From IMG/VR virus record IMGVR_UViG_2703718811_000008, positions 1 to 7,370 of that record: a stretch of 7,370 nucleotides of DNA, one strand, 5' to 3'. How positions within the stretch are numbered: the stretch's first letter is position 1; each line of letters begins with the position of its first letter. The notes under the pieces were generated by a model. It did no database searches and had not been told where the DNA came from. It was given only the letters and a program-made list of their open reading frames with translations. This document shows positions 1 through 7,370 of this stretch, piece by piece. The position numbers and the translations under genes are program-made. This stretch comes from a virus (Duplodnaviria; Heunggongvirae; Uroviricota; Caudoviricetes).

Positions 1-104
1 GGACTGCCAAACGGCTGCCAGCCCTCCCTCAGTTTTTGTGTCAGTCGCTCCGCAAGGTCTGACGGAGACGCCGCCCTGACCACGTCATAGTGTTTAAATG
101 CCAT
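1..104 (-). CDS. Small phage protein, 5' part only (gene runs off the left edge); tentatively DUF1737-like, the type often found just upstream of lambdoid lysis genes
   Basis: ATG at 104..102 with GGAGG (RC of 109-113) 4 nt upstream; frame stays open to position 1; translation MAFKHYDVVRAASPSDLAERLTQKLREGWQPFGS...; absent from ORF track because under 60 aa inside the window. Family assignment is from memory of an EGW.P.G-type motif. Confidence 0.45.
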   Translation of the reverse strand, partial: MAFKHYDVVRAASPSDLAERLTQKLREGWQPFGS

Positions 105-283
105 TATTCCTCCCCTTTCCGGGATTTTCCTCAACAGTTGCGGGCCACGGTCCGGCTACACGGAGAATCAAAAGAGGAGAACCGCAGCCCGCAAAACGAA
201 AAAGGCCGCGCAGTTGCGCAGCCTTATAAACCCTGGTTAAAATCCACACGATAAAAATGACAATGCAAGTATCTCATGCTGTT

Positions 284-309
284 GCCCGAACCCACTCGGG
301 CTTTTTTTG
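284..309 (+). terminator. Rho-independent terminator (plus strand)
   Basis: Stem GCCCGA (284-289) / TCGGGC (296-301), loop ACCCAC, followed by T7 (302-308). Confidence 0.6.
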
Positions 310-310
310 C

Positions 311-340
311 ATAAAAAAATCCCCTCCGGAGAGGGGATTT
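311..340 (-). terminator. Rho-independent terminator (minus strand)
   Basis: Perfect 8-bp stem ATCCCCTC (319-326) / GAGGGGAT (331-338), loop CGGA; on the minus strand the hairpin is followed by T7 (RC of A-run 312-318). Confidence 0.6.
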
Positions 341-649
341 GCTTGTGTGAACATTTACATTGCATAACTGCATGGTGCCGGGTGCCTCCCGGTGAATTCA
401 GTATCAGCACCTGAATCCGCGATTATCACATATACCTACTTGCTGATTGCCCCTCCGCACAGGGGGATTCACCATGCGAGATTATTTTTAACAAAACGAC
501 GGGTTATTATCCAGTACCCAACATAATGAAATGTGATGCTTTTAACATTTTTCACAACCCGAGCTTAATGATAATCGCTTTATTAACACCCCAGTTTCAT
601 GGCGAGTTTAAATTTCTGCTTGTACCACTCTAGTTTAATATCAAAAATA

Positions 650-784
650 TCAGTTATCGATAAGAATATAGTAAACAAATAAACACATCCCGAGAAAACC
701 AATAACTATCATAGCTAATGCCAGCATAAATATTTGTTGTATACTTATTTTTACCGATGAAAGGTAACGCAGGAAAATGCTCAT
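650..784 (-). CDS. Candidate small single-TM membrane peptide (44 aa)
   Basis: ATG at 784..782 with GGGGA 7 nt upstream (RC of 785-800 = TTATGGGGACAGTATA); translation MSIFLRYLSSVKISIQQIFMLALAMIVIGFLGMCLFVYYILIDN, stop TGA at 650-652. This is the C-terminal part of track ORF 650..976, whose upstream part overlaps the tRNAs and is rejected. Very AT-rich, so could be a chance ORF. Confidence 0.3.
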   Translation of the reverse strand: MSIFLRYLSSVKISIQQIFMLALAMIVIGFLGMCLFVYYILIDN

Positions 785-807
785 TATACTGTCCCCATAA
801 TCCTCTA

Positions 808-882
<75 letters not shown>

Positions 883-883
883 A

Positions 884-960
884 TGGTGCGCCATACTGGA
901 TTCGAACCAGTGACCGATTGCTTAGAAGGCAATTGCTCTGTCCAACTGAGCTAACAGCGC
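884..960 (-). tRNA. tRNA-Arg (anticodon UCU, reads AGA), CCA encoded
   Basis: RC of 884-960 = GCGCTGTTAGCTCAGTTGGACAGAGCAATTGCCTTCTAAGCAATCGGTCACTGGTTCGAATCCAGTATGGCGCACCA. Canonical cloverleaf: D-arm GCTC/GAGC, anticodon stem ATTGC/GCAAT with loop CTTCTAA, T-arm ACTGG-TTCGAAT-CCAGT. Similar to but distinct from E. coli argU as recalled. Confidence 0.9.
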
Positions 961-964
961 TTCG

Positions 965-1038
965 TGCCCCTGCCATGTTTGAACCGGCGACCTGGCGGTT
1001 ATTAACCGCTCGCTCTGACCATTAGGGCTAAAGGGGCA
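965..1038 (-). tRNA. Degenerate tRNA-like element (possible pseudo-tRNA), no CCA encoded
   Basis: RC of 965-1038 = TGCCCCTTTAGCCCTAATGGTCAGAGCGAGCGGTTAATAACCGCCAGGTCGCCGGTTCAAACATGGCAGGGGCA. Perfect 7-bp acceptor-like stem TGCCCCT/AGGGGCA, T-loop-like GGTTCAAAC, anticodon-like loop TTAATAA (nominal AAU). But the D-stem has a mismatch, there are 3 nt between acceptor and D-stem, and the T-stem has a G-A pair. Sits 4 nt from tRNA-Arg. Confidence 0.35.
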
Positions 1039-1309
1039 ATAAGTTTCTTTAAAAACAGCATGCATATGCCTGCTATATAATCCATACTAACTTTTATTAA
1101 AAACAAATTCAACAAAATCAAGGTTAGCGATACTTCTTTATCTAATAGCAACATTAATTACTATTGTGTGATTTTGATGATACTCCCTATTAAAAAACTC
1201 TTCCATTAGCACAATGAGTGCTCAGCTATCTATTGAAATAAATGAGCACAAGAGGTATACATATCTCCACAGCAGACATTCTATCTAAAAGATCACAAAA
1301 ACAGACATC

Positions 1310-1657
1310 ATGATAAAAAATATTTTTATAATAATTTCAAGCATCCTCTGCATGGGGCTAATTGTGGAACATCCTCAAATCGACAGTGAAATATCGACAA
1401 ATGAAATAATCAATTGCCTTTCCAAGACAATTCAAGAAAGTGGTTATATAATGGATCTCAACGGCACCAAACCACCAATTAATGCAAAAGAATTCGCAAC
1501 ATATAGAATGTCAAAATACACCGGCTCATTCTGGATAGAGTATTCAACAGAAGGAAGACCAACAAGGAATGTTGGCATAATAAATGCAACAAATGATAAT
1601 TATAATACTTTGAATGATGCGTTACAATTTTGTATTAATAACATGACGAAATATTAA
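1310..1657 (+). CDS. Hypothetical small secreted or membrane-anchored protein (115 aa), AT-rich cargo gene
   Basis: ORF-track ORF; N-terminus MIKNIFIIISSILCMGLIV looks like a signal peptide or TM anchor; rest is hydrophilic and Asn/Thr-rich. Very AT-rich compared with the phage backbone. No strong SD before the ATG. No family recognised. Confidence 0.5.
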   Translation: MIKNIFIIISSILCMGLIVEHPQIDSEISTNEIINCLSKTIQESGYIMDLNGTKPPINAKEFATYRMSKYTGSFWIEYSTEGRPTRNVGIINATNDNYNTLNDALQFCINNMTKY

Positions 1658-1853
1658 CATCAACAATTAATATGTGTACATCCCCGTGAGCAAACCGTTC
1701 GTAATACCAGTGAGCAACAACAGCATGCGCTCCAACGTCTGAACGGCTTCGCCCATATGATATGGTTCAGCACATTAAAACGTTTACGCATCACGATTTC
1801 AATATCAGATGCCAGGCGATGTCCACAGAACAGGTAAAGACTTCCGGCTGGCT

Positions 1854-2013
1854 TTAACTACCCGACATAACGAGCTGGGTCAGTATTAACTGGCAGCGTT
1901 CGCGTGAAAGGTAAGTACTCTGCGCCATCTCCCCGACTGTCGCCGGGTCGTTAACACTTAATTCATTAAATAACACTCTGGCGGTTTCAGTCATATACGG
2001 CTGTTTCAGCATG
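1854..2013 (-). CDS. Small helix-turn-helix-like ORF (52 aa), possibly a truncated regulator remnant
   Basis: ATG at 2013..2011 with AGGGAAAAAG upstream; translation MLKQPYMTETARVLFNELSVNDPATVGEMAQSTYLSRERCQLILTQLVMSGS. The segment TVGEMAQSTYLSRERCQLILTQL has the pattern of an HTH recognition unit. The longer track ORF 1854..2195 is rejected because its extension contains a terminator hairpin. Confidence 0.35.
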
Positions 2014-2135
2014 TCTTTTTCCCTATTCCGGTTAACGTGACACACCAATAACTCTTGTCGAAAAAGCCAACAAGCTGAAAGACCGGTATTCACCACCACC
2101 AGCGCGTTTACTGAACTACTGAATGTTACAGACAT

Positions 2136-2165
2136 AAAAAAAGCCAGCCACAGGGGAAGGCTGGC
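2136..2165 (-). terminator. Rho-independent terminator (minus strand) downstream of the CPBP gene
   Basis: Stem GCCAGCC (2143-2149) / GGCTGGC (2159-2165), 9-nt loop; on the minus strand it is followed by T7 (RC of A-run 2136-2142). Confidence 0.55.
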
Positions 2166-2559
2166 AAACTCGTAGGGCAAAATGCTGTTACGCAAACTTC
2201 GTTACAGGGATATCCTGCAATACCTAAAATACACAACATTTAGACAACTACACAGTACCTCACTAAACTTTTAAGATTTTGTTATTAAATACAGTTATTC
2301 ACACTCTTACCTGATACGCAGTAATGCCCGTCTGGCCATGTAGAGTAACAACAGTCCGGGCAATGACAATCCATAGACACAAAAACCGCCCGCAGGTGGA
2401 TTTAGCAGTTTGGTACAGTAACCACTTTTAACATCATATTCTATAATTTACGTACGTAAATGCTTTACTACTCATTTTTAACCATTAATGGAGTGAATAT
2501 TATCCAGTGAGCCGTAAACCCCGTTCTTCAGGGCGTGGAGGATGTCAACAACAACATGT

Positions 2560-3378
2560 TCAATGATTTTTTAAGAATGGATAGGTAAAAAATAACAGGT
2601 GGCACAAATTCAACCCAAAATGAAAAAATGTAGCAACCCATAAGCGTCCACTAAACATCCATGCCATGCCATAAATCACTCCAGATAACATTGCAAACAG
2701 TACAAGTAACAAACCACCAGAATAATGATAAAGACCAAACAAAACTGAAGCGATAAACAATGCTACAAATGGATGTACAATCATAGAAAGACGCTGCTGA
2801 AGATATCCTCTGAAAAATGCTTCTTCAGCAAGAGAGACAAAAAACAAGTTGCTCAATATAAACTTTGGCAACCACTCCGGGAAATGAACCTCTGGTTTTA
2901 TTCCACCCAGTAAAACAGCTAAAACCAAAATAAATGGAACAGATAAAAAGAGCAAGGCCCACATTCCATAAGATACTTCGTACCTGAAATCGCTCTTAAA
3001 CAACCTGGGAAAAGATAACACCAATAAAAATGGCACCATGGCCTTATCAAAATTAAAATACATGGTGTATGGCGTACTAAACGGCCCGGTTATTACAGAA
3101 TTCAAAACCACAGGGTTATGAAAACCAGGCCAAAAGTGATATAGCAGCACAACAGATAATACAACTAAACAACTCTCCGTAACAATTCTACACCATGATT
3201 TCTGTGCCCACTTAACTTTTAACCAATACAATAGCCCAACGATTGTAAAGAGACCAAATGCCGGCCAATCTATAACTCCATTAGCGACACCCAAAACAAC
3301 AGATGCTATTAACAATAACAAAGAAAACAGTTTATATGCATTCAAACTTAGCAAGGATAAAGCCAGAACGCCCCACAT
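2560..3378 (-). CDS. CPBP-family (CAAX protease / Abi-type) intramembrane metalloprotease, 272 aa
   Basis: ATG at 3378..3376 with GGAGG about 6 nt upstream (RC of 3379-3395 = TTTTTGACGGAGGTTTT). Polytopic hydrophobic protein with the three CPBP motifs in order: EExxxR (AEEAFFRGY), FxxxH (FGLYHY), HxxxN (HFGLN). Gene is strongly AT-rich. Confidence 0.85.
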   Translation of the reverse strand: MWGVLALSLLSLNAYKLFSLLLLIASVVLGVANGVIDWPAFGLFTIVGLLYWLKVKWAQKSWCRIVTESCLVVLSVVLLYHFWPGFHNPVVLNSVITGPFSTPYTMYFNFDKAMVPFLLVLSFPRLFKSDFRYEVSYGMWALLFLSVPFILVLAVLLGGIKPEVHFPEWLPKFILSNLFFVSLAEEAFFRGYLQQRLSMIVHPFVALFIASVLFGLYHYSGGLLLVLFAMLSGVIYGMAWMFSGRLWVATFFHFGLNLCHLLFFTYPFLKNH

Positions 3379-3423
3379 AAAACCTCCGTCAAAAACAAAT
3401 CATCCCAAGATAACAATAACCAT

Positions 3424-3452
3424 TTATAATACAACTGTCATTTACAATGCAA
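3424..3452 (-). promoter_or_regulatory. Candidate sigma70 promoter for the CPBP gene (pR'-like late promoter or moron promoter)
   Basis: On the minus strand: -35 TTGCAT (3452..3447), 17-bp spacer, -10 TATAAA (3429..3424); about 45 nt upstream of the CPBP ATG, in the AT-rich Q-CPBP gap. Confidence 0.3.
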
Positions 3453-3495
3453 TGCTTACTACTCGTAAAAAATATAATAATAGTCAGAATCCTTC

Positions 3496-3519
3496 CTAGA
3501 TATTGCATGCAATATCTAG
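3496..3519. promoter_or_regulatory. Perfect 24-bp palindrome overlapping the Q stop codon; candidate protein-binding site
   Basis: CTAGATATTGCA|TGCAATATCTAG is exactly self-complementary; no U-tract on either strand, so not a classical terminator; overlaps the last Q codons and its TAG (3516-3518). Confidence 0.4.
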
Positions 3520-3884
3520 CATGCATCCATTTCCAGTGAAACATTAAGTGCCATTAACATCCCGTCAACAATACCCTCAGCCTTTTGAAGTTTTTTACCG
3601 ATATAACCATCCGAACAACCATGTTTTCTTGCCAAACTCATAAAAGTCATTCCAAATACGTAGTAATCAAGCAGCAATTCATGCAGTTCACTATTGTTCC
3701 GGTTCAGGCGCGCCATACACCCGCATATAATCATCGCGTCATCGTCACAACATTGCGGGCGGGATTTTATCTTTGCTGGAATAAGCCCCTTAAATCCGTT
3801 GGCAATAGACGACCATGTTACATCCTCATGGTTATTAGCTACCCATGCTCCCCAGTGTTCGAGAACCATCTGAATATCACGCAT
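3516..3884 (-). CDS. Late-gene antitermination protein Q (QuuD-like lambdoid Q family)
   Basis: ATG at 3884..3882 with GGAG 7 nt upstream; the track ORF starts 5 codons earlier at a TTG. Translation [34 protein letters not shown]...[16 protein letters not shown]... closely matches my recollection of E. coli DLP12 QuuD (YbcQ), including the Cys-rich zinc motif. Confidence 0.85.
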
Positions 3885-3901
3885 CAACTTTCTCCACAAA
3901 A

Positions 3902-4897
3902 TCAGGCCAGCACGCCAATTGCCAGCGCACGATCGATAAAACGAAATATCAGCTCCAGTTGGGAGCCATACTTTTCTTCAAATGCCACGGTATCCGCATG
4001 CAGCTCGTCGTGATGCTTTCTGCACAAAGGCAACACAAAAAGGTCATGCGCTTTTGTACCCATTCCACCCTGACCGTGGCCTATCAGGTGGTGGGGATCA
4101 TCAGCAGGCTTTCCACAACATGCACACGGCTGTGTCTTAACCCAGCGCGTGTACTTTTCATTAACCCAGCGGTGACGTTTTGGGCGTAACATAAAAGACT
4201 CCGGCGACTCCGGATCCACTTTCAGCGCCAGCACCTTTTTCGCTTTATCCTGGATGATGCTGGTGGCAGGAACCGAAGGAATAAGGTCACTTTCCCGGGT
4301 GACAGACGACACAACAGGCTTCGGTAATCTCAGTGCCTTACGGGCTGCACTTTCCGGTAAGGCATCCGCCAGGTCATTACGAACCAGCCACCAGCACAGT
4401 TCAGGCATTGTCACAACGTGACTATCATCAAAACCGAGATCCCGACGCACGACAGACAACACCCAGCGGGCACAGTTATCCGTTGCCATTGATTCCAGCC
4501 GTTCCGTGAACTGATCGCGCAGCTGGTTATCGCAGTGCCAGCACAGACGGATTGCGCCCGGCGCGTGTCGCATTGTGGTCATGTTCTCGCTGTGCCAGTC
4601 GGAATGAGGCCACTGGCAGCCTTTTTCACGAAGTAACCAGCTTTCAAGACATTCCACGCCACCAGCACGACGGATCACTGCCTCATTGCGGAACACGGCC
4701 CGAACGGCAGGATCATCCGCCAGCGGTTGTGATGCCGCCGGAACAGCACCACTGGCGAAAGATGAATAACGTTCCGGCTCAGGCTCCAGCAGGACACGCC
4801 CCTGCATAAACAGGGGCATCAGCTCTGAACCTGGCCTGAACAATACGATCCCCATACGCGGGGCAATTTCAGGGGTCAGTAGTGCTCTCACGGTCAC
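3902..4897 (-). CDS. DUF968-like prophage protein with C-terminal Cys/His (HNH-like zinc-binding) motif; YdfU-like position directly upstream of Q
   Basis: 331-aa ORF, stop TGA at 3902-3904. C-terminus [43 protein letters not shown] has C-x2-C...HH...PLC..HH...H spacing. Start uncertain: GTG at 4897, GTG at 4891 (better SD GAGG) or internal ATG. Confidence 0.75.
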
Positions 4898-4898
4898 C

Positions 4899-5708
4899 TC
4901 AATGAACGGTATCGAGCAGCTTTAACAGCTCAGGGAATCGGGATTCGAAGAAATGCGGCTGCGTCTCGCGCGGATTTGCGGGACTGGTGATGTTCTTGCC
5001 GAACATGCAGCCTTTCGCTGTCAGCGACCAGAATTTTTTGATGTTGTTAATCGCGGTACGGCTGTATCGTTCGCGCTGCTCGACGATCCCCAGCTTCACC
5101 ATCTGGTGATATGCCTGATTAGCCGTCAGGCGGATACCATACTGCTTCAGCAGTGCACTCAGTGACAGCGTAGGGCGACTTGAGCCATCGGGTGCATCGG
5201 CAGGAGCATCAATTGCATAGCGCGGAGCCAGATTCGGTAAGCCAACAGCCTCCTGGAGTTTCTGACAAGCCCCAAGCACAGATGAGTTAGACAGGTTTAA
5301 TTCCCGACGCATAAAGTCCAGCAGGATCACGCCAGCCTGCATCTTGTCAGCAGCCTGCCCGGATAATTTTTCCGGTGCGCTGGTTATCATATCGAAAGTA
5401 CGGATCACCTTCAGATGGAATGACGGGCTGATCCACATTGCATAGGCATACACCAGTTCTTTGCAGACATACGTCCCCTGGTTATTTCCGCCATTAATGA
5501 CGCTAACTGGTTGATTTTGTTCCAGAGGCGGAATTCCACCCTCGGTGAAAAGTTGTTCAATCAATTCACAGGTTTGCTTATTGGAGAGCCAGTATTTCGG
5601 GCGGTTTTTTTGTTCTCCCCCGGCTGCCCTGTGCAGATCGTTCAGGCTGTAACGCCCATAAGCATCACGACGAACTTCAATACCATCAATGACCATCAGA
5701 TTATTCAT
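4899..5708 (-). CDS. KilA-N domain protein (Roi / antirepressor-like), 269 aa
   Basis: ATG at 5708..5706 with AGGAG 9-10 nt upstream. N-terminus (VIDGIEVRRDAYGRYSLNDLHRA...GTYVCKELVYAYAMWISPSFHLKVI) matches the KilA-N/APSES pattern (GTWVHP..A..FA.WISPEF as recalled). Stop TGA at 4899-4901. Confidence 0.8.
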   Translation of the reverse strand: MNNLMVIDGIEVRRDAYGRYSLNDLHRAAGGEQKNRPKYWLSNKQTCELIEQLFTEGGIPPLEQNQPVSVINGGNNQGTYVCKELVYAYAMWISPSFHLKVIRTFDMITSAPEKLSGQAADKMQAGVILLDFMRRELNLSNSSVLGACQKLQEAVGLPNLAPRYAIDAPADAPDGSSRPTLSLSALLKQYGIRLTANQAYHQMVKLGIVEQRERYSRTAINNIKKFWSLTAKGCMFGKNITSPANPRETQPHFFESRFPELLKLLDTVH

Positions 5709-5727
5709 ACTTCGTTTCTCCTCTTAA

Positions 5728-5955
5728 TCAGGCGGCTGCACCCGCCGTTTTCTCGTACTTACTGATAGTGATCTCGACCTTCCCTCCCGGGATAACCGGT
5801 CCCCACTCCACCAGCATTCTTTTCACCTGACTGTCGTCTTCCCACACACCCGCGTGGGTCAGGGCGTCAAACAGCGCCTTGTTATAGTTGTCCAGATCGC
5901 GGATCCGGTTATCCCAGCATGGTTGCCACCTCCTGATTGGTTGGCGGAAAGCCAC
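5728..5955 (-). pseudogene. rusA: RusA Holliday-junction resolvase, C-terminal part only (5'-truncated)
   Basis: Frame translates to ...DNRIRDLDNYNKALFDALTHAGVWEDDSQVKRMLVEWGPVIPGGKVEITISKYE, matching the RusA C-terminal catalytic half (RRRDLDN...DALTKAGFWLDDAQV...GGRLELTITE as recalled). The frame is closed upstream, and the roughly 60 N-terminal residues expected for RusA are absent. The track's start is a GTG, and RusA-like sequence begins near 5915. Confidence 0.6.
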
Positions 5956-6019
5956 GCTCTTTCTGGTAAGAAATCAGCATATCCAGCACCTGCTGCTGGC
6001 ATTGAGTTAACGTCGTCAT
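5909..6019 (-). other. 36-codon ORF resembling the N-terminal start of a LexA-type DNA-binding domain; probable remnant at a mosaic junction
   Basis: ATG at 6019..6017 overlaps the TAA of the upstream gene (TAATG). Translation MTTLTQCQQQVLDMLISYQKERGFPPTNQEVATMLG aligns without gaps to LexA residues about 4-36 ([33 protein letters not shown], recalled), then hits TAA exactly where RusA similarity begins in the +1 frame. Confidence 0.3.
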
Positions 6020-6507
6020 TACGCCCCCACGTAATTCCCTGACAGATACCACTCATCACCCGATACAGCGCGCTTGCTGCTTTTCCGTAAACACTGCTCA
6101 CGACGCGCCAGAAAATTGTTTCGTTCTGGCTGGGAGTGGCTTTCACGGAATGCCGCCATCCACACGGTTGCAGCACGACGGTATAAGCCCCTGGACTCCA
6201 GTTCTTCAGCCTGGCGGGTCAGGCACAAAATCACCCGTGGATCGTTAGTGCCGACATAGAAATTGCGCACAGGTCTGGTTTCACGAACTGGTTGTGGTTC
6301 CGGCTCCTGCGCTCTCTCAGTCAGGCGCGGGAAATGTCTGCGTGTATCTCCTTCACAACGGTGAGCCACACGCCCACTCTGACGTAACTTGCTTGCTGAC
6401 TGCAGAACGCGCTGCCGTGAGTAACCTGCAAAAGCCTCCGCAATGTCTCCGGAAGTACACCCCGGATGGGCTTCAATGAATTTCTGAACGTCATTCAAAA
6501 GACTCAT
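6019..6507 (-). CDS. PerC-like transcriptional regulator with N-terminal winged-helix-like region (162 aa)
   Basis: ATG at 6507..6505 overlaps the TGA of the upstream replication gene (ATGA) and has GGGGGGG upstream. C-terminal LESRGLYRRAATVWMAAFRESHSQPERNNFLARREQCL matches the recalled PerC/Pch signature (LEARGLWRRAAARW...RRRKHCL). Confidence 0.65.
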   Translation of the reverse strand: MSLLNDVQKFIEAHPGCTSGDIAEAFAGYSRQRVLQSASKLRQSGRVAHRCEGDTRRHFPRLTERAQEPEPQPVRETRPVRNFYVGTNDPRVILCLTRQAEELESRGLYRRAATVWMAAFRESHSQPERNNFLARREQCLRKSSKRAVSGDEWYLSGNYVGA

Positions 6508-7370
6508 AATCCCCCCCTGAATCCTGCCGGGATCTGGCTGTAGTCCACGTTGTCGTAACTGGCTTTGAAGTACGGGTCTTCGCGTTTTTCGGTGTACGTG
6601 CTGACGGACGGCGATAAGCGCAGGGAAAGCTCATCCCATTTTTCCCGCAGCTTCGACGGGCTGAGCACGTTACGGCACCAGAACGGATCGCGACTGACGC
6701 GGCTGTACATCTCGCAGATTTGTTTATGAGTACGACCATCCTGCACACACATCAGGCGAATTTCGTTTGCCCAGGCTGTCCAGTTCGGTTCTTTGGGACG
6801 AACCACCTCGCCGTCACATTCGGCGGCATGCTCGTACAGGGCGATGATTTTTTTCCAGAGCCACTGTGCGCAGGTCAAATCATCCTGCGTCCCCCACTGG
6901 CGCTTTTTAGGACTGAATACAACCGCATCAGGATGGCGAGTTAAAAAATCCTGTTCAGCCGTCTGCGTGTCCGGTTGCGAAGCGTCCGGACGAGAAGTTT
7001 TTTTATCTGACGGATCATGTTTTGATTTTACTGACGGATCCCCACCAGATTCTGACGGGTGAAAACCCGCTTTTTTGCCAGATTTCGACGCATCAAATTT
7101 TGACGGGCCAGATTTTGATGCGTCAGATTTTGACGGGTCAGAATCTGACAGTTGAGAAAATGCCGCTGCCTGAAGCTTCGCAACGTTAAGCTGATAAACA
7201 TTCGACGCATTGCGGTTACCCTGGCGACGCGCCTTACGCGTTAACCAGCCTTCTGCTTCCAGCCGTGCGATAGCCGTTCTGACGGTACTCATCCCCGCGC
7301 CAATCTGGCGGGCAATGGTTTCAATTGATGGCCAGCACACACCTTTGAACCGCCCCGGAAATCCTGGAGA
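6504..7370 (-). CDS. Phage replication initiation protein (O-like; winged-helix N-terminal domain, repeat-encoded linker), 5' end beyond window
   Basis: Frame is open to the right edge (the track's start at 7340 is a GTG, not a true start). The N-terminal CWPSIETIARQIGAGMSTVRTAIARLEAEGWLTRKARRQGNRNASNVYQL fits the wHTH pattern of replication initiators. An internal Ser/Asp/Lys-rich low-complexity linker is encoded by the tandem DNA repeats. Position is upstream of a nin-like region and Q. Confidence 0.7.
   Translation of the reverse strand, partial: SPGFPGRFKGVCWPSIETIARQIGAGMSTVRTAIARLEAEGWLTRKARRQGNRNASNVYQLNVAKLQAAAFSQLSDSDPSKSDASKSGPSKFDASKSGKKAGFHPSESGGDPSVKSKHDPSDKKTSRPDASQPDTQTAEQDFLTRHPDAVVFSPKKRQWGTQDDLTCAQWLWKKIIALYEHAAECDGEVVRPKEPNWTAWANEIRLMCVQDGRTHKQICEMYSRVSRDPFWCRNVLSPSKLREKWDELSLRLSPSVSTYTEKREDPYFKASYDNVDYSQIPAGFRGGL
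7081..7155. repeat. Five direct 15-bp tandem repeats (iteron-like), with three looser copies at 7001-7060
   Basis: GATTTCGACGCATCA / AATTTTGACGGGCCA / GATTTTGATGCGTCA / GATTTTGACGGGTCA / GAATCTGACAGTTGA at exact 15-bp spacing. The core TGACGGGTCA is a TGAC/GTCA inverted repeat. Extra TGACGG copies at 7008, 7032 and 7053 flank an AT-rich patch (6996-7030). Confidence 0.8.

Follow-up and report, generated by a model that had tools for sequence, protein, structure and literature searches.

A reading frame of 44 codons placed just downstream of a tRNA cluster in a lambdoid prophage of Escherichia coli is probably a genuine protein-coding gene, though a dispensable one, which would specify an orphan small membrane protein and would be carried as AT-rich cargo by some of the lambdoid prophages of this species. 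The frame is kept open in most of the related E. coli prophages. It was picked out in a sequence-only reading of a 7,370-nt stretch of viral DNA (positions 1 to 7,370 of IMG/VR record IMGVR_UViG_2703718811_000008; hereafter the window), which offered a type I toxin, a holin or antiholin-like factor and a membrane regulator as possible functions, and of these suggestions we favour the membrane regulator.

Results

The reading frame and its predicted peptide

The sequence-only reading described a minus-strand peptide of 44 residues with one strongly hydrophobic helix, hidden inside a longer ORF and placed between the tRNA genes and the terminators, and on each of these points our analysis agrees with it (Table 1). 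The frame translates as MSIFLRYLSSVKISIQQIFMLALAMIVIGFLGMCLFVYYILIDN up to its stop codon and forms the 3' part of a mechanical ORF of 108 residues, the 5' extension of which is spurious because it crosses both tRNA genes and is interrupted by stop codons in two related loci (L012 and L013). The terminator-like hairpins downstream lie on the same strand as the frame.

Table 1. Features of the candidate gene and its surroundings, in window coordinates.
Feature	Position	Strand	Remarks
Second intrinsic-terminator-like hairpin	202..225	-	
Intrinsic-terminator-like hairpin with T run	317..340	-	3' end of STnc100; first terminator-like site downstream of the candidate ORF
STnc100 (PasD-related) sRNA element	308..507	-	Rfam score 136 bits, gathering score 47
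AT-rich non-coding 3' flank of the candidate ORF	508..649	-	co-occurs with the ORF, far less conserved
Candidate small ORF, 44 codons and stop	650..784	-	ATG 784-782, TGA 652-650
Mechanical 108-residue ORF containing the candidate as its 3' part	650..976	-	5' extension spurious
Codons 18-42, predicted transmembrane helix IFMLALAMIVIGFLGMCLFVYYILI	659..733	-	followed by a two-residue tail, DN
Codons 1-17, weakly amphipathic, net-positive N-terminal segment (R6, K12)	734..784	-	predicted cytoplasmic
Spacer of 23 nt, tRNA-Gly 3' end to start codon	785..807	-	contains GAGGA and GGGGA
tRNA-Gly (UCC)	808..882	-	directly upstream of the candidate ORF
tRNA-Arg (UCU)	884..960	-	

The predicted peptide consists of two segments, the first of which has a hydrophobic moment of 1.06 and a mean hydropathy of 0.51, while the second (residues 18–42) holds the best 19-residue Kyte-Doolittle mean (KD19), 2.75. 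AlphaFold2 predicts one helix over residues 2–43 with a pLDDT of 86, rising to about 95 within codons 18–42. The stretch has only 31% GC, with 41% T on the coding strand, and in so AT-rich a sequence an open frame of this length is by itself unremarkable: when the local 248 nt were shuffled, an ORF of at least 44 amino acids appeared in 16% of the shuffles. A KD19 of 2.5 was also reached in only 0.1% of them, and by none of the 45 other ORFs of 35–70 amino acids in the window, so that the hydrophobicity stands above compositional expectation with P of about 0.001 as estimated from the shuffles.

Two other products were considered. A 25-residue peptide started from the internal Met20 is not favoured, as no Shine-Dalgarno (SD) sequence lies ahead of it and as it would meet a stop after eight codons in locus L010, where the full-length frame is open. 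Nor does the 3' flank hold a second ORF or a continuation of the candidate by frameshift, since the frame in question (702..583) is broken by indels between alleles.

Prophage setting and neighbouring genes

The host element is a lambdoid E. coli prophage with its late genes on the minus strand. Gene order on that strand runs from an O-like replication gene through RusA, a KilA-N/Roi-like gene and DUF968 to the Q antiterminator (3899–3516), and after Q come a CPBP intramembrane protease gene (3378–2560), the remnant of a methyltransferase and, on the opposite strand, an AT-rich gene (1310–1657). There follow a decayed tRNA (1037–965), tRNA-Arg, tRNA-Gly, the candidate ORF and the STnc100 element. 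The next genes, as seen in the near-identical locus L001, are those for a nanS-p-type carbohydrate esterase of the SASA family, for a class II holin and for a lysozyme. The CPBP-family gene, which encodes a CAAX/Abi-like intramembrane glutamic endopeptidase and lies directly downstream of the Q antiterminator, has a GC content of 36–40% and looks like another cargo gene of the late transcript. The opposite-strand gene, situated between the methyltransferase remnant and the tRNA cluster, is an ORF of 115 amino acids with a hydrophobic, signal-like N-terminus; its RefSeq version is a shorter hypothetical protein, and it is present in only some of the related prophages.

tRNA-Gly adjoins the candidate ORF in all loci checked for tRNAs, except one that is disrupted by IS1. 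The third tRNA of the cluster is decayed in the window, where it scores 28.3 bits against an Rfam threshold of 29 and receives no call from ARAGORN; compared by eye with its intact counterpart in locus L022, its anticodon loop and T-arm appear changed and its CCA end is missing. That intact counterpart has the anticodon CAU and is a tRNA-Met according to ARAGORN, and it is possible that the CAU tRNA in the clusters of related prophages is an ileZ-type tRNA able to read ATA. The cluster of L015 includes a tRNA-Ile (UAU). Four of the 44 codons of the candidate are ATA, a count that is explained by AT-richness alone too.

The STnc100 element lies 143 nt beyond the ORF, has the first terminator at its end, and follows the ORF on the same strand in every locus examined for it (L002, L006, L007, L010, L015 and L022); two tandem copies are found in L010. 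PasD, a prophage sRNA related to STnc100, occurs near sialic acid esterase genes, and STnc100 is also present in the flanks of prophage sRNA genes chosen without regard to this ORF (bioRxiv 10.64898/2026.05.13.724894). On the plus strand, positions 249–308 match AgvB, the anti-GcvB sponge sRNA, at 56.6 bits against a threshold of 56. This AgvB-like element, which has its own terminator (284–301, plus strand), runs antisense to the late genes and borders directly on the 3' end of STnc100, and a weaker match to AsxR falls on the same spot.

Distribution of the candidate gene

Among 5,426 complete E. coli genomes the ORF region was found in 24, always on the chromosome, and it also occurs on seven contigs in IMG/VR and on four from metagenomes. 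Six protein clusters, all of them from E. coli, came out of a word-indexed search of 5.8 billion proteins, and in a few of these clusters GenBank submitters had named the product a putative membrane protein; PGAP annotated the ORF in none of the loci that were fetched from the complete genomes examined. A tblastn search of 50,697 phage records gave no match to the ORF, whereas its tRNA neighbours do match Stx-converting and other lambdoid phages in the same set. No relative was found in the GTDB species-representative genomes scanned, a profile search of 1.84 billion representative proteins returned nothing outside the ORF's own family, and Pfam, PHROGs, NCBIfam and PADLOC gave no match at E-values up to 10. 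Our literature search found the peptide sequence in no paper, and searches on small prophage proteins found nothing on this locus. The preprint on the Pas sRNAs covers only the neighbouring STnc100/PasD elements and not the ORF (bioRxiv 10.64898/2026.05.13.724894).

Viewed against the marks of a moron, the region shows a deviant composition, with a GC content of 0.31–0.33 over positions 501–800 against 0.46–0.57 in the adjacent windows, and a patchy presence, with the ORF in those 24 genomes, its tRNA neighbours distributed far more widely and other cargo occupying the slot elsewhere. A promoter and terminator of its own, with which a moron can be expressed while the prophage is repressed, were not found. 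In L007 the gene iraM lies further down in the cargo slot, and in L010 a 142-residue gene annotated as TolA begins right after the stop codon of the ORF, which points to a recombination junction at the ORF end.

Conservation of the frame

The sequence-only reading had named conservation of the frame and its stop in related prophages as the check to be made, and the outcome favours the frame. In twelve distinct alleles, collected from IMG/VR, metagenomes and E. coli genomes, the 135-nt frame is kept and no indel has entered it, although the most divergent of them share only 70% (L015/L016) and 75% (L022) amino acid identity. The position of the stop is constant, the sole change in the stop codon being TGA to TAA, and a start codon is always present, either as ATG or GTG, as an ATG one codon upstream or as a GTG four codons upstream. 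One metagenome contig (L020) was left out as unreliable on account of its many homopolymer indels. The aligned variants all agree at residues R6, Y7, S9, S10, V11, K12, I13 and Q16 and over the core FMLALAMIVIG, where the DNA varies only at the third position of codon A24; replacements among the alleles are mostly conservative, within the set I/V/L/F/M/T.

Substitutions were inferred by parsimony on a neighbour-joining tree for codons 2–44, which gave 50 changes, 20 of them synonymous and 30 non-synonymous with no stops, distributed over codon positions 1, 2 and 3 as 17, 10 and 23. When the same mutations were re-placed randomly on matching bases, so that the mutation spectrum was preserved, the expectation was 15.1 synonymous changes, 32.8 non-synonymous changes and 2.1 stops. 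The probability of no stop was 0.10, that of at least 20 synonymous changes 0.084, and the joint probability 0.012; with a chance of about 0.10 of arising under the permutation, intactness alone is not decisive, and the skew over codon positions is by itself not significant. Pairwise dN/dS was 0.3–0.4 for divergent pairs, with Fisher P = 0.04 for the window against L015. The frame of the ORF also has the lowest pN/pS, 0.43, but the other frames (0.47–0.58) come near to it and discrimination between frames by pN/pS is therefore weak alone. The coding signal is modest. With so small a family, known only from E. coli, tests of selection have little evolutionary depth to draw on.

The ORF also differs from what follows it. 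Over six loci the mean pairwise identity is 92% in the ORF, with no gap columns, and 94–96% in the tRNAs, against 79% with 11 gap columns in the 3' flank and 77% in STnc100, and in blastn alignments of the same genomes the flank reaches 74–78% where the ORF stretch reaches 84–92%, a contrast between ORF and flank that could partly stem from mosaic recombination, if the ORF and the tRNAs have gone through it together. Two lineages, L010 and L015, lose their homology to the window about 10 nt past the stop codon, where a break would be expected if a functional module ended with the ORF.

Not all copies are sound. The copy in L021 is damaged by two +1 frameshifts, that in L017 is interrupted by IS1 at about codon 12, and in L010 (strains M1 and M3; 1501–2110) compensated indels of −2 and +5 leave the frame open with 13 codons rewritten. 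In the light of these three copies the gene, if real, is dispensable. The inserted element in L017, an IS1-like sequence at 2270–3030, appears by eye to be flanked by a short target duplication, GTAAAAAT, and the 3' remnant of the ORF has there been called as a 56-residue "putative membrane domain protein" (P0009). A further E. coli allele (P0007; GenBank EEZ7091121.1) carries an in-frame tandem duplication of 21 nt, or seven codons, in the N-terminal segment (YLSSVKS/YLSSVKI).

Signals for expression and the possibility of an untranslated RNA

The reasonable SD sequence claimed in the sequence-only reading holds good only as far as the existence of SD-like motifs goes, for GAGGA and GGGGA are indeed there, but the description overstates signals that are weak, badly spaced and not conserved. 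GAGGA (805–801) lies 13–16 nt from the start, and 16 nt from the ATG in the window, which is too far, and GGGGA (796–792), at 7 nt, is a weak SD-like match; among all start-like triplets of the window, about 9% match the anti-SD as well or better. Both motifs are missing in L015/L016 and in L022. The spacer has been replaced in L015 and L022, and it also shows a 1-nt indel among the alleles. It contributes to a small hairpin, CCAUA-GAGGAU-UAUGG (795–810, minus strand), which is built on the CCA end of tRNA-Gly with the SD-like GAGGA in its loop and which is likewise kept in most alleles and replaced in L015 and L022. At 23 nt the spacer is too short for a promoter of the ORF's own, from which we infer that the ORF would be transcribed together with the tRNAs. 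A scan of the window predicted no terminator between the ORF and the end of STnc100 and found no promoter for STnc100, and inspection of positions 508–560 by eye revealed no convincing conserved hexamers.

Such an arrangement would also suit an RNA that is never translated. The conserved stretch might belong to the tRNA-cluster transcript as non-coding RNA, serving as its 3' trailer or as the precursor and leader of the downstream sRNA of the STnc100/PasD type; the open frame and the hydrophobicity would then be incidental effects of a sequence rich in T and of little time for divergence. We regard this as unlikely overall, though as the main rival to a translated frame and one that deserves real weight. 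The constant company of STnc100 on the same strand, with no terminator predicted between them and no promoter in the scan, accords with it, as do the weak and non-conserved SD, the lack of annotation by PGAP and the broken copies in L021, L017 and L010. The 41% T on the strand of the ORF favours hydrophobic codons, the chance of about 0.10 that no stop would arise is not small, and pN/pS is similar in the other frames.

Against it, the stretch shows no detectable RNA structure. It folds no better than shuffled controls on either strand (z-scores of −0.74 sense and −1.52 antisense), and the alignment fold has essentially no covariation, with compensatory change in 2 of 46 predicted pairs and a covariation term of −0.2 kcal/mol; no Rfam family was found on positions 650–784 at E-values up to 1. 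A T-rich composition almost never reproduced the hydrophobicity in matched shuffles. An untranslated RNA would moreover leave aside the excess of synonymous and third-position changes, the replacement of TGA by TAA at the stop codon, the retention of start codons by three different solutions and the breaks in homology just past the stop in two lineages (L010 and L015). These features favour a translated frame, the reading that we prefer.

Toxin and lysis functions

A translated frame of this kind invites comparison with the type I toxins, in which a pore-forming or membrane-depolarising peptide would have its translation curbed by a cis-antisense RNA or a nearby sRNA. The size of 44 amino acids and the single hydrophobic helix fit the class. 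The ORF is also AT-rich and prophage-borne and, to judge from its GTG or TTG starts in some alleles, may be weakly translated; sRNA genes lie nearby, with STnc100 on the same strand and the AgvB-like element on the opposite one, and the repeated inactivation by IS1 and frameshift might mean that the gene is toxic and costly to carry. The other features of a type I toxin that can be read from sequence are missing, and the suggestion in the sequence-only reading is unsupported. No toxin family was matched in Pfam, NCBIfam, PHROGs or PADLOC at E-values up to 10. The antisense RNA that the same reading had proposed to look for on the plus strand has, by computational prediction, only one promoter-like site (718–745, plus strand), a weak one that matches at 9 of 12 positions and whose −10 element is gone in other alleles; nor does the plus strand have a predicted terminator near the ORF to end such a transcript. 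Since the folds, the Rfam search, the promoter site and the search for a plus-strand terminator were all negative, neither an antisense antitoxin nor a structured RNA is supported. There is no promoter of the ORF's own and, with the start 23 nt past a tRNA, no room for a long structured 5' UTR, and STnc100 neither overlaps the ORF nor is restricted to its company, as it also flanks prophage sRNA genes unselected for this ORF. We consider a type I toxin improbable.

A role as holin, antiholin or other lysis-timing factor, acting with the lysis cassette downstream, is less probable still, to the point that we give it very little credence. The ORF does lie upstream of the lysis genes in the direction of the late transcript and has a single predicted transmembrane helix, but it stands outside the cassette: in L001 a class II holin and a lysozyme are encoded 3.3–4.9 kb downstream, past the SASA-family esterase gene, and the cassette thus has a holin of its own. 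The charged C-terminal tail of a holin is absent, with only D-N after the helix, and no holin family of Pfam or PHROGs was matched. The ORF was, besides, undetected in 5,402 of the 5,426 complete genomes and in all 50,697 phage records. The holin and antiholin suggestions of the sequence-only reading accordingly lack support.

Discussion

A tentative model of the gene and its product

If the ORF is translated, its product would be a tail-anchored inner-membrane peptide of 44–45 amino acids, with a positive N-terminal helix of about 17 residues in the cytoplasm, the helix of residues 18–42 in the membrane and two residues in the periplasm. The N-terminus is placed in the cytoplasm because R6 and K12 precede the transmembrane helix and only Asp-Asn comes after it, in keeping with the positive-inside rule. 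Transcription would occur with the tRNAs, from the promoter of the tRNA cluster and/or as part of the Q-antiterminated late transcript, possibly on a precursor shared with STnc100, and tRNA 3' processing would presumably free the message. Translation is likely to be inefficient because the SD is weak and some alleles start with GTG. As to the action of the peptide, we can only speculate that it binds a host or phage inner-membrane protein helix to helix. It is the invariance of the transmembrane core, FMLALAMIVIG...G..C, that leads us to propose specific helix-helix binding, and we hold pore formation to be less likely than such binding.

A more elaborate arrangement is conceivable, in which tRNA, peptide mRNA and a 3'-UTR-derived sRNA of the STnc100/PasD type would all come from one processed transcript, with the peptide binding a host inner-membrane protein. 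Processing of the tRNA 3' end would yield a message with a short leader, the 3' end of that message would yield an Hfq-binding sRNA, and the peptide might serve, for example, in phage exclusion or in the retuning of a transporter or sensor, all from the site that is the stx slot. We put this forward as a conjecture with a low chance of being right in full.

Should the simpler model of a translated membrane peptide hold, the ORF would add one more unannotated small membrane protein to those of lambdoid prophages, at the locus that holds the Shiga toxin genes in related phages. It would be a further example of a coding frame joined to phage tRNA genes, and its product would be a candidate for modulating some host membrane protein. 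In practical terms the gain would be modest, as the family is rare (24 of 5,426 genomes), narrow, dispensable and without a link to a phenotype.

Comparison with known systems

The place of the ORF between the tRNA cluster and the late genes was thought unusual in the sequence-only reading, but it is in fact the usual cargo slot of lambdoid prophages. The stxAB genes of Stx phages lie directly after phage tRNA genes, and in phage JLK-2012 (L023, 2803–3395) the same place after tRNA-Gly is taken by tciA and tciB, the latter encoding a hydrophobic protein of 54 amino acids. Like stxAB and tciA/tciB, the ORF follows the tRNA cluster and precedes an esterase of the SASA family (nanS-p/yjhS type) and the lysis genes, and it is AT-rich, with 31% GC against 47–56% around it, and variably present among prophages. 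TciB is, in addition, a small hydrophobic protein too, but its sequence is unrelated and reads as two hydrophobic stretches. The two loci also differ in their signals, for in JLK-2012 a terminator-like hairpin stands directly after tRNA-Gly, ahead of the cargo, whereas the ORF begins 23 nt past the tRNA and neither a promoter nor a terminator belonging to it was detected.

Protein frames directly downstream of tRNAs are known from the E. coli chromosome, where tpr is found in the tyrT-tyrV operon and tufB follows thrU-tyrU-glyT-thrT. These genes resemble the candidate in having a coding frame after tRNAs in one unit, and they show that co-transcripts of tRNA and mRNA are workable; they differ in being chromosomal genes with unrelated products, and for the ORF the co-transcription is inferred only.

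The type I toxins Hok/Gef, Ldr, Ibs, TisB, ShoB, ZorO and DinQ share with the predicted product a small hydrophobic peptide, a mobile element as carrier and poor translation signals. They are set apart from it by family membership, a conserved antisense RNA and its promoter, a promoter of their own and a structured leader, none of which was found for the ORF.

A nearer parallel in presumed function is offered by MgrB, AcrZ and MgtS, small single-pass regulators of the E. coli inner membrane that bind membrane proteins helix to helix. No sequence relationship to them was found, the 1.84 billion representative proteins searched having yielded no relative outside the ORF's own family, and the ORF differs in being prophage-borne and placed after tRNA genes. 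The likeness lies in predicted features: a length of at most 50 amino acids, one predicted transmembrane helix, very short parts outside the membrane and a history of being missed by annotation pipelines. Taken with its slot among the cargo genes, the candidate is probably an orphan member of a familiar class, the small hydrophobic proteins borne by prophages.
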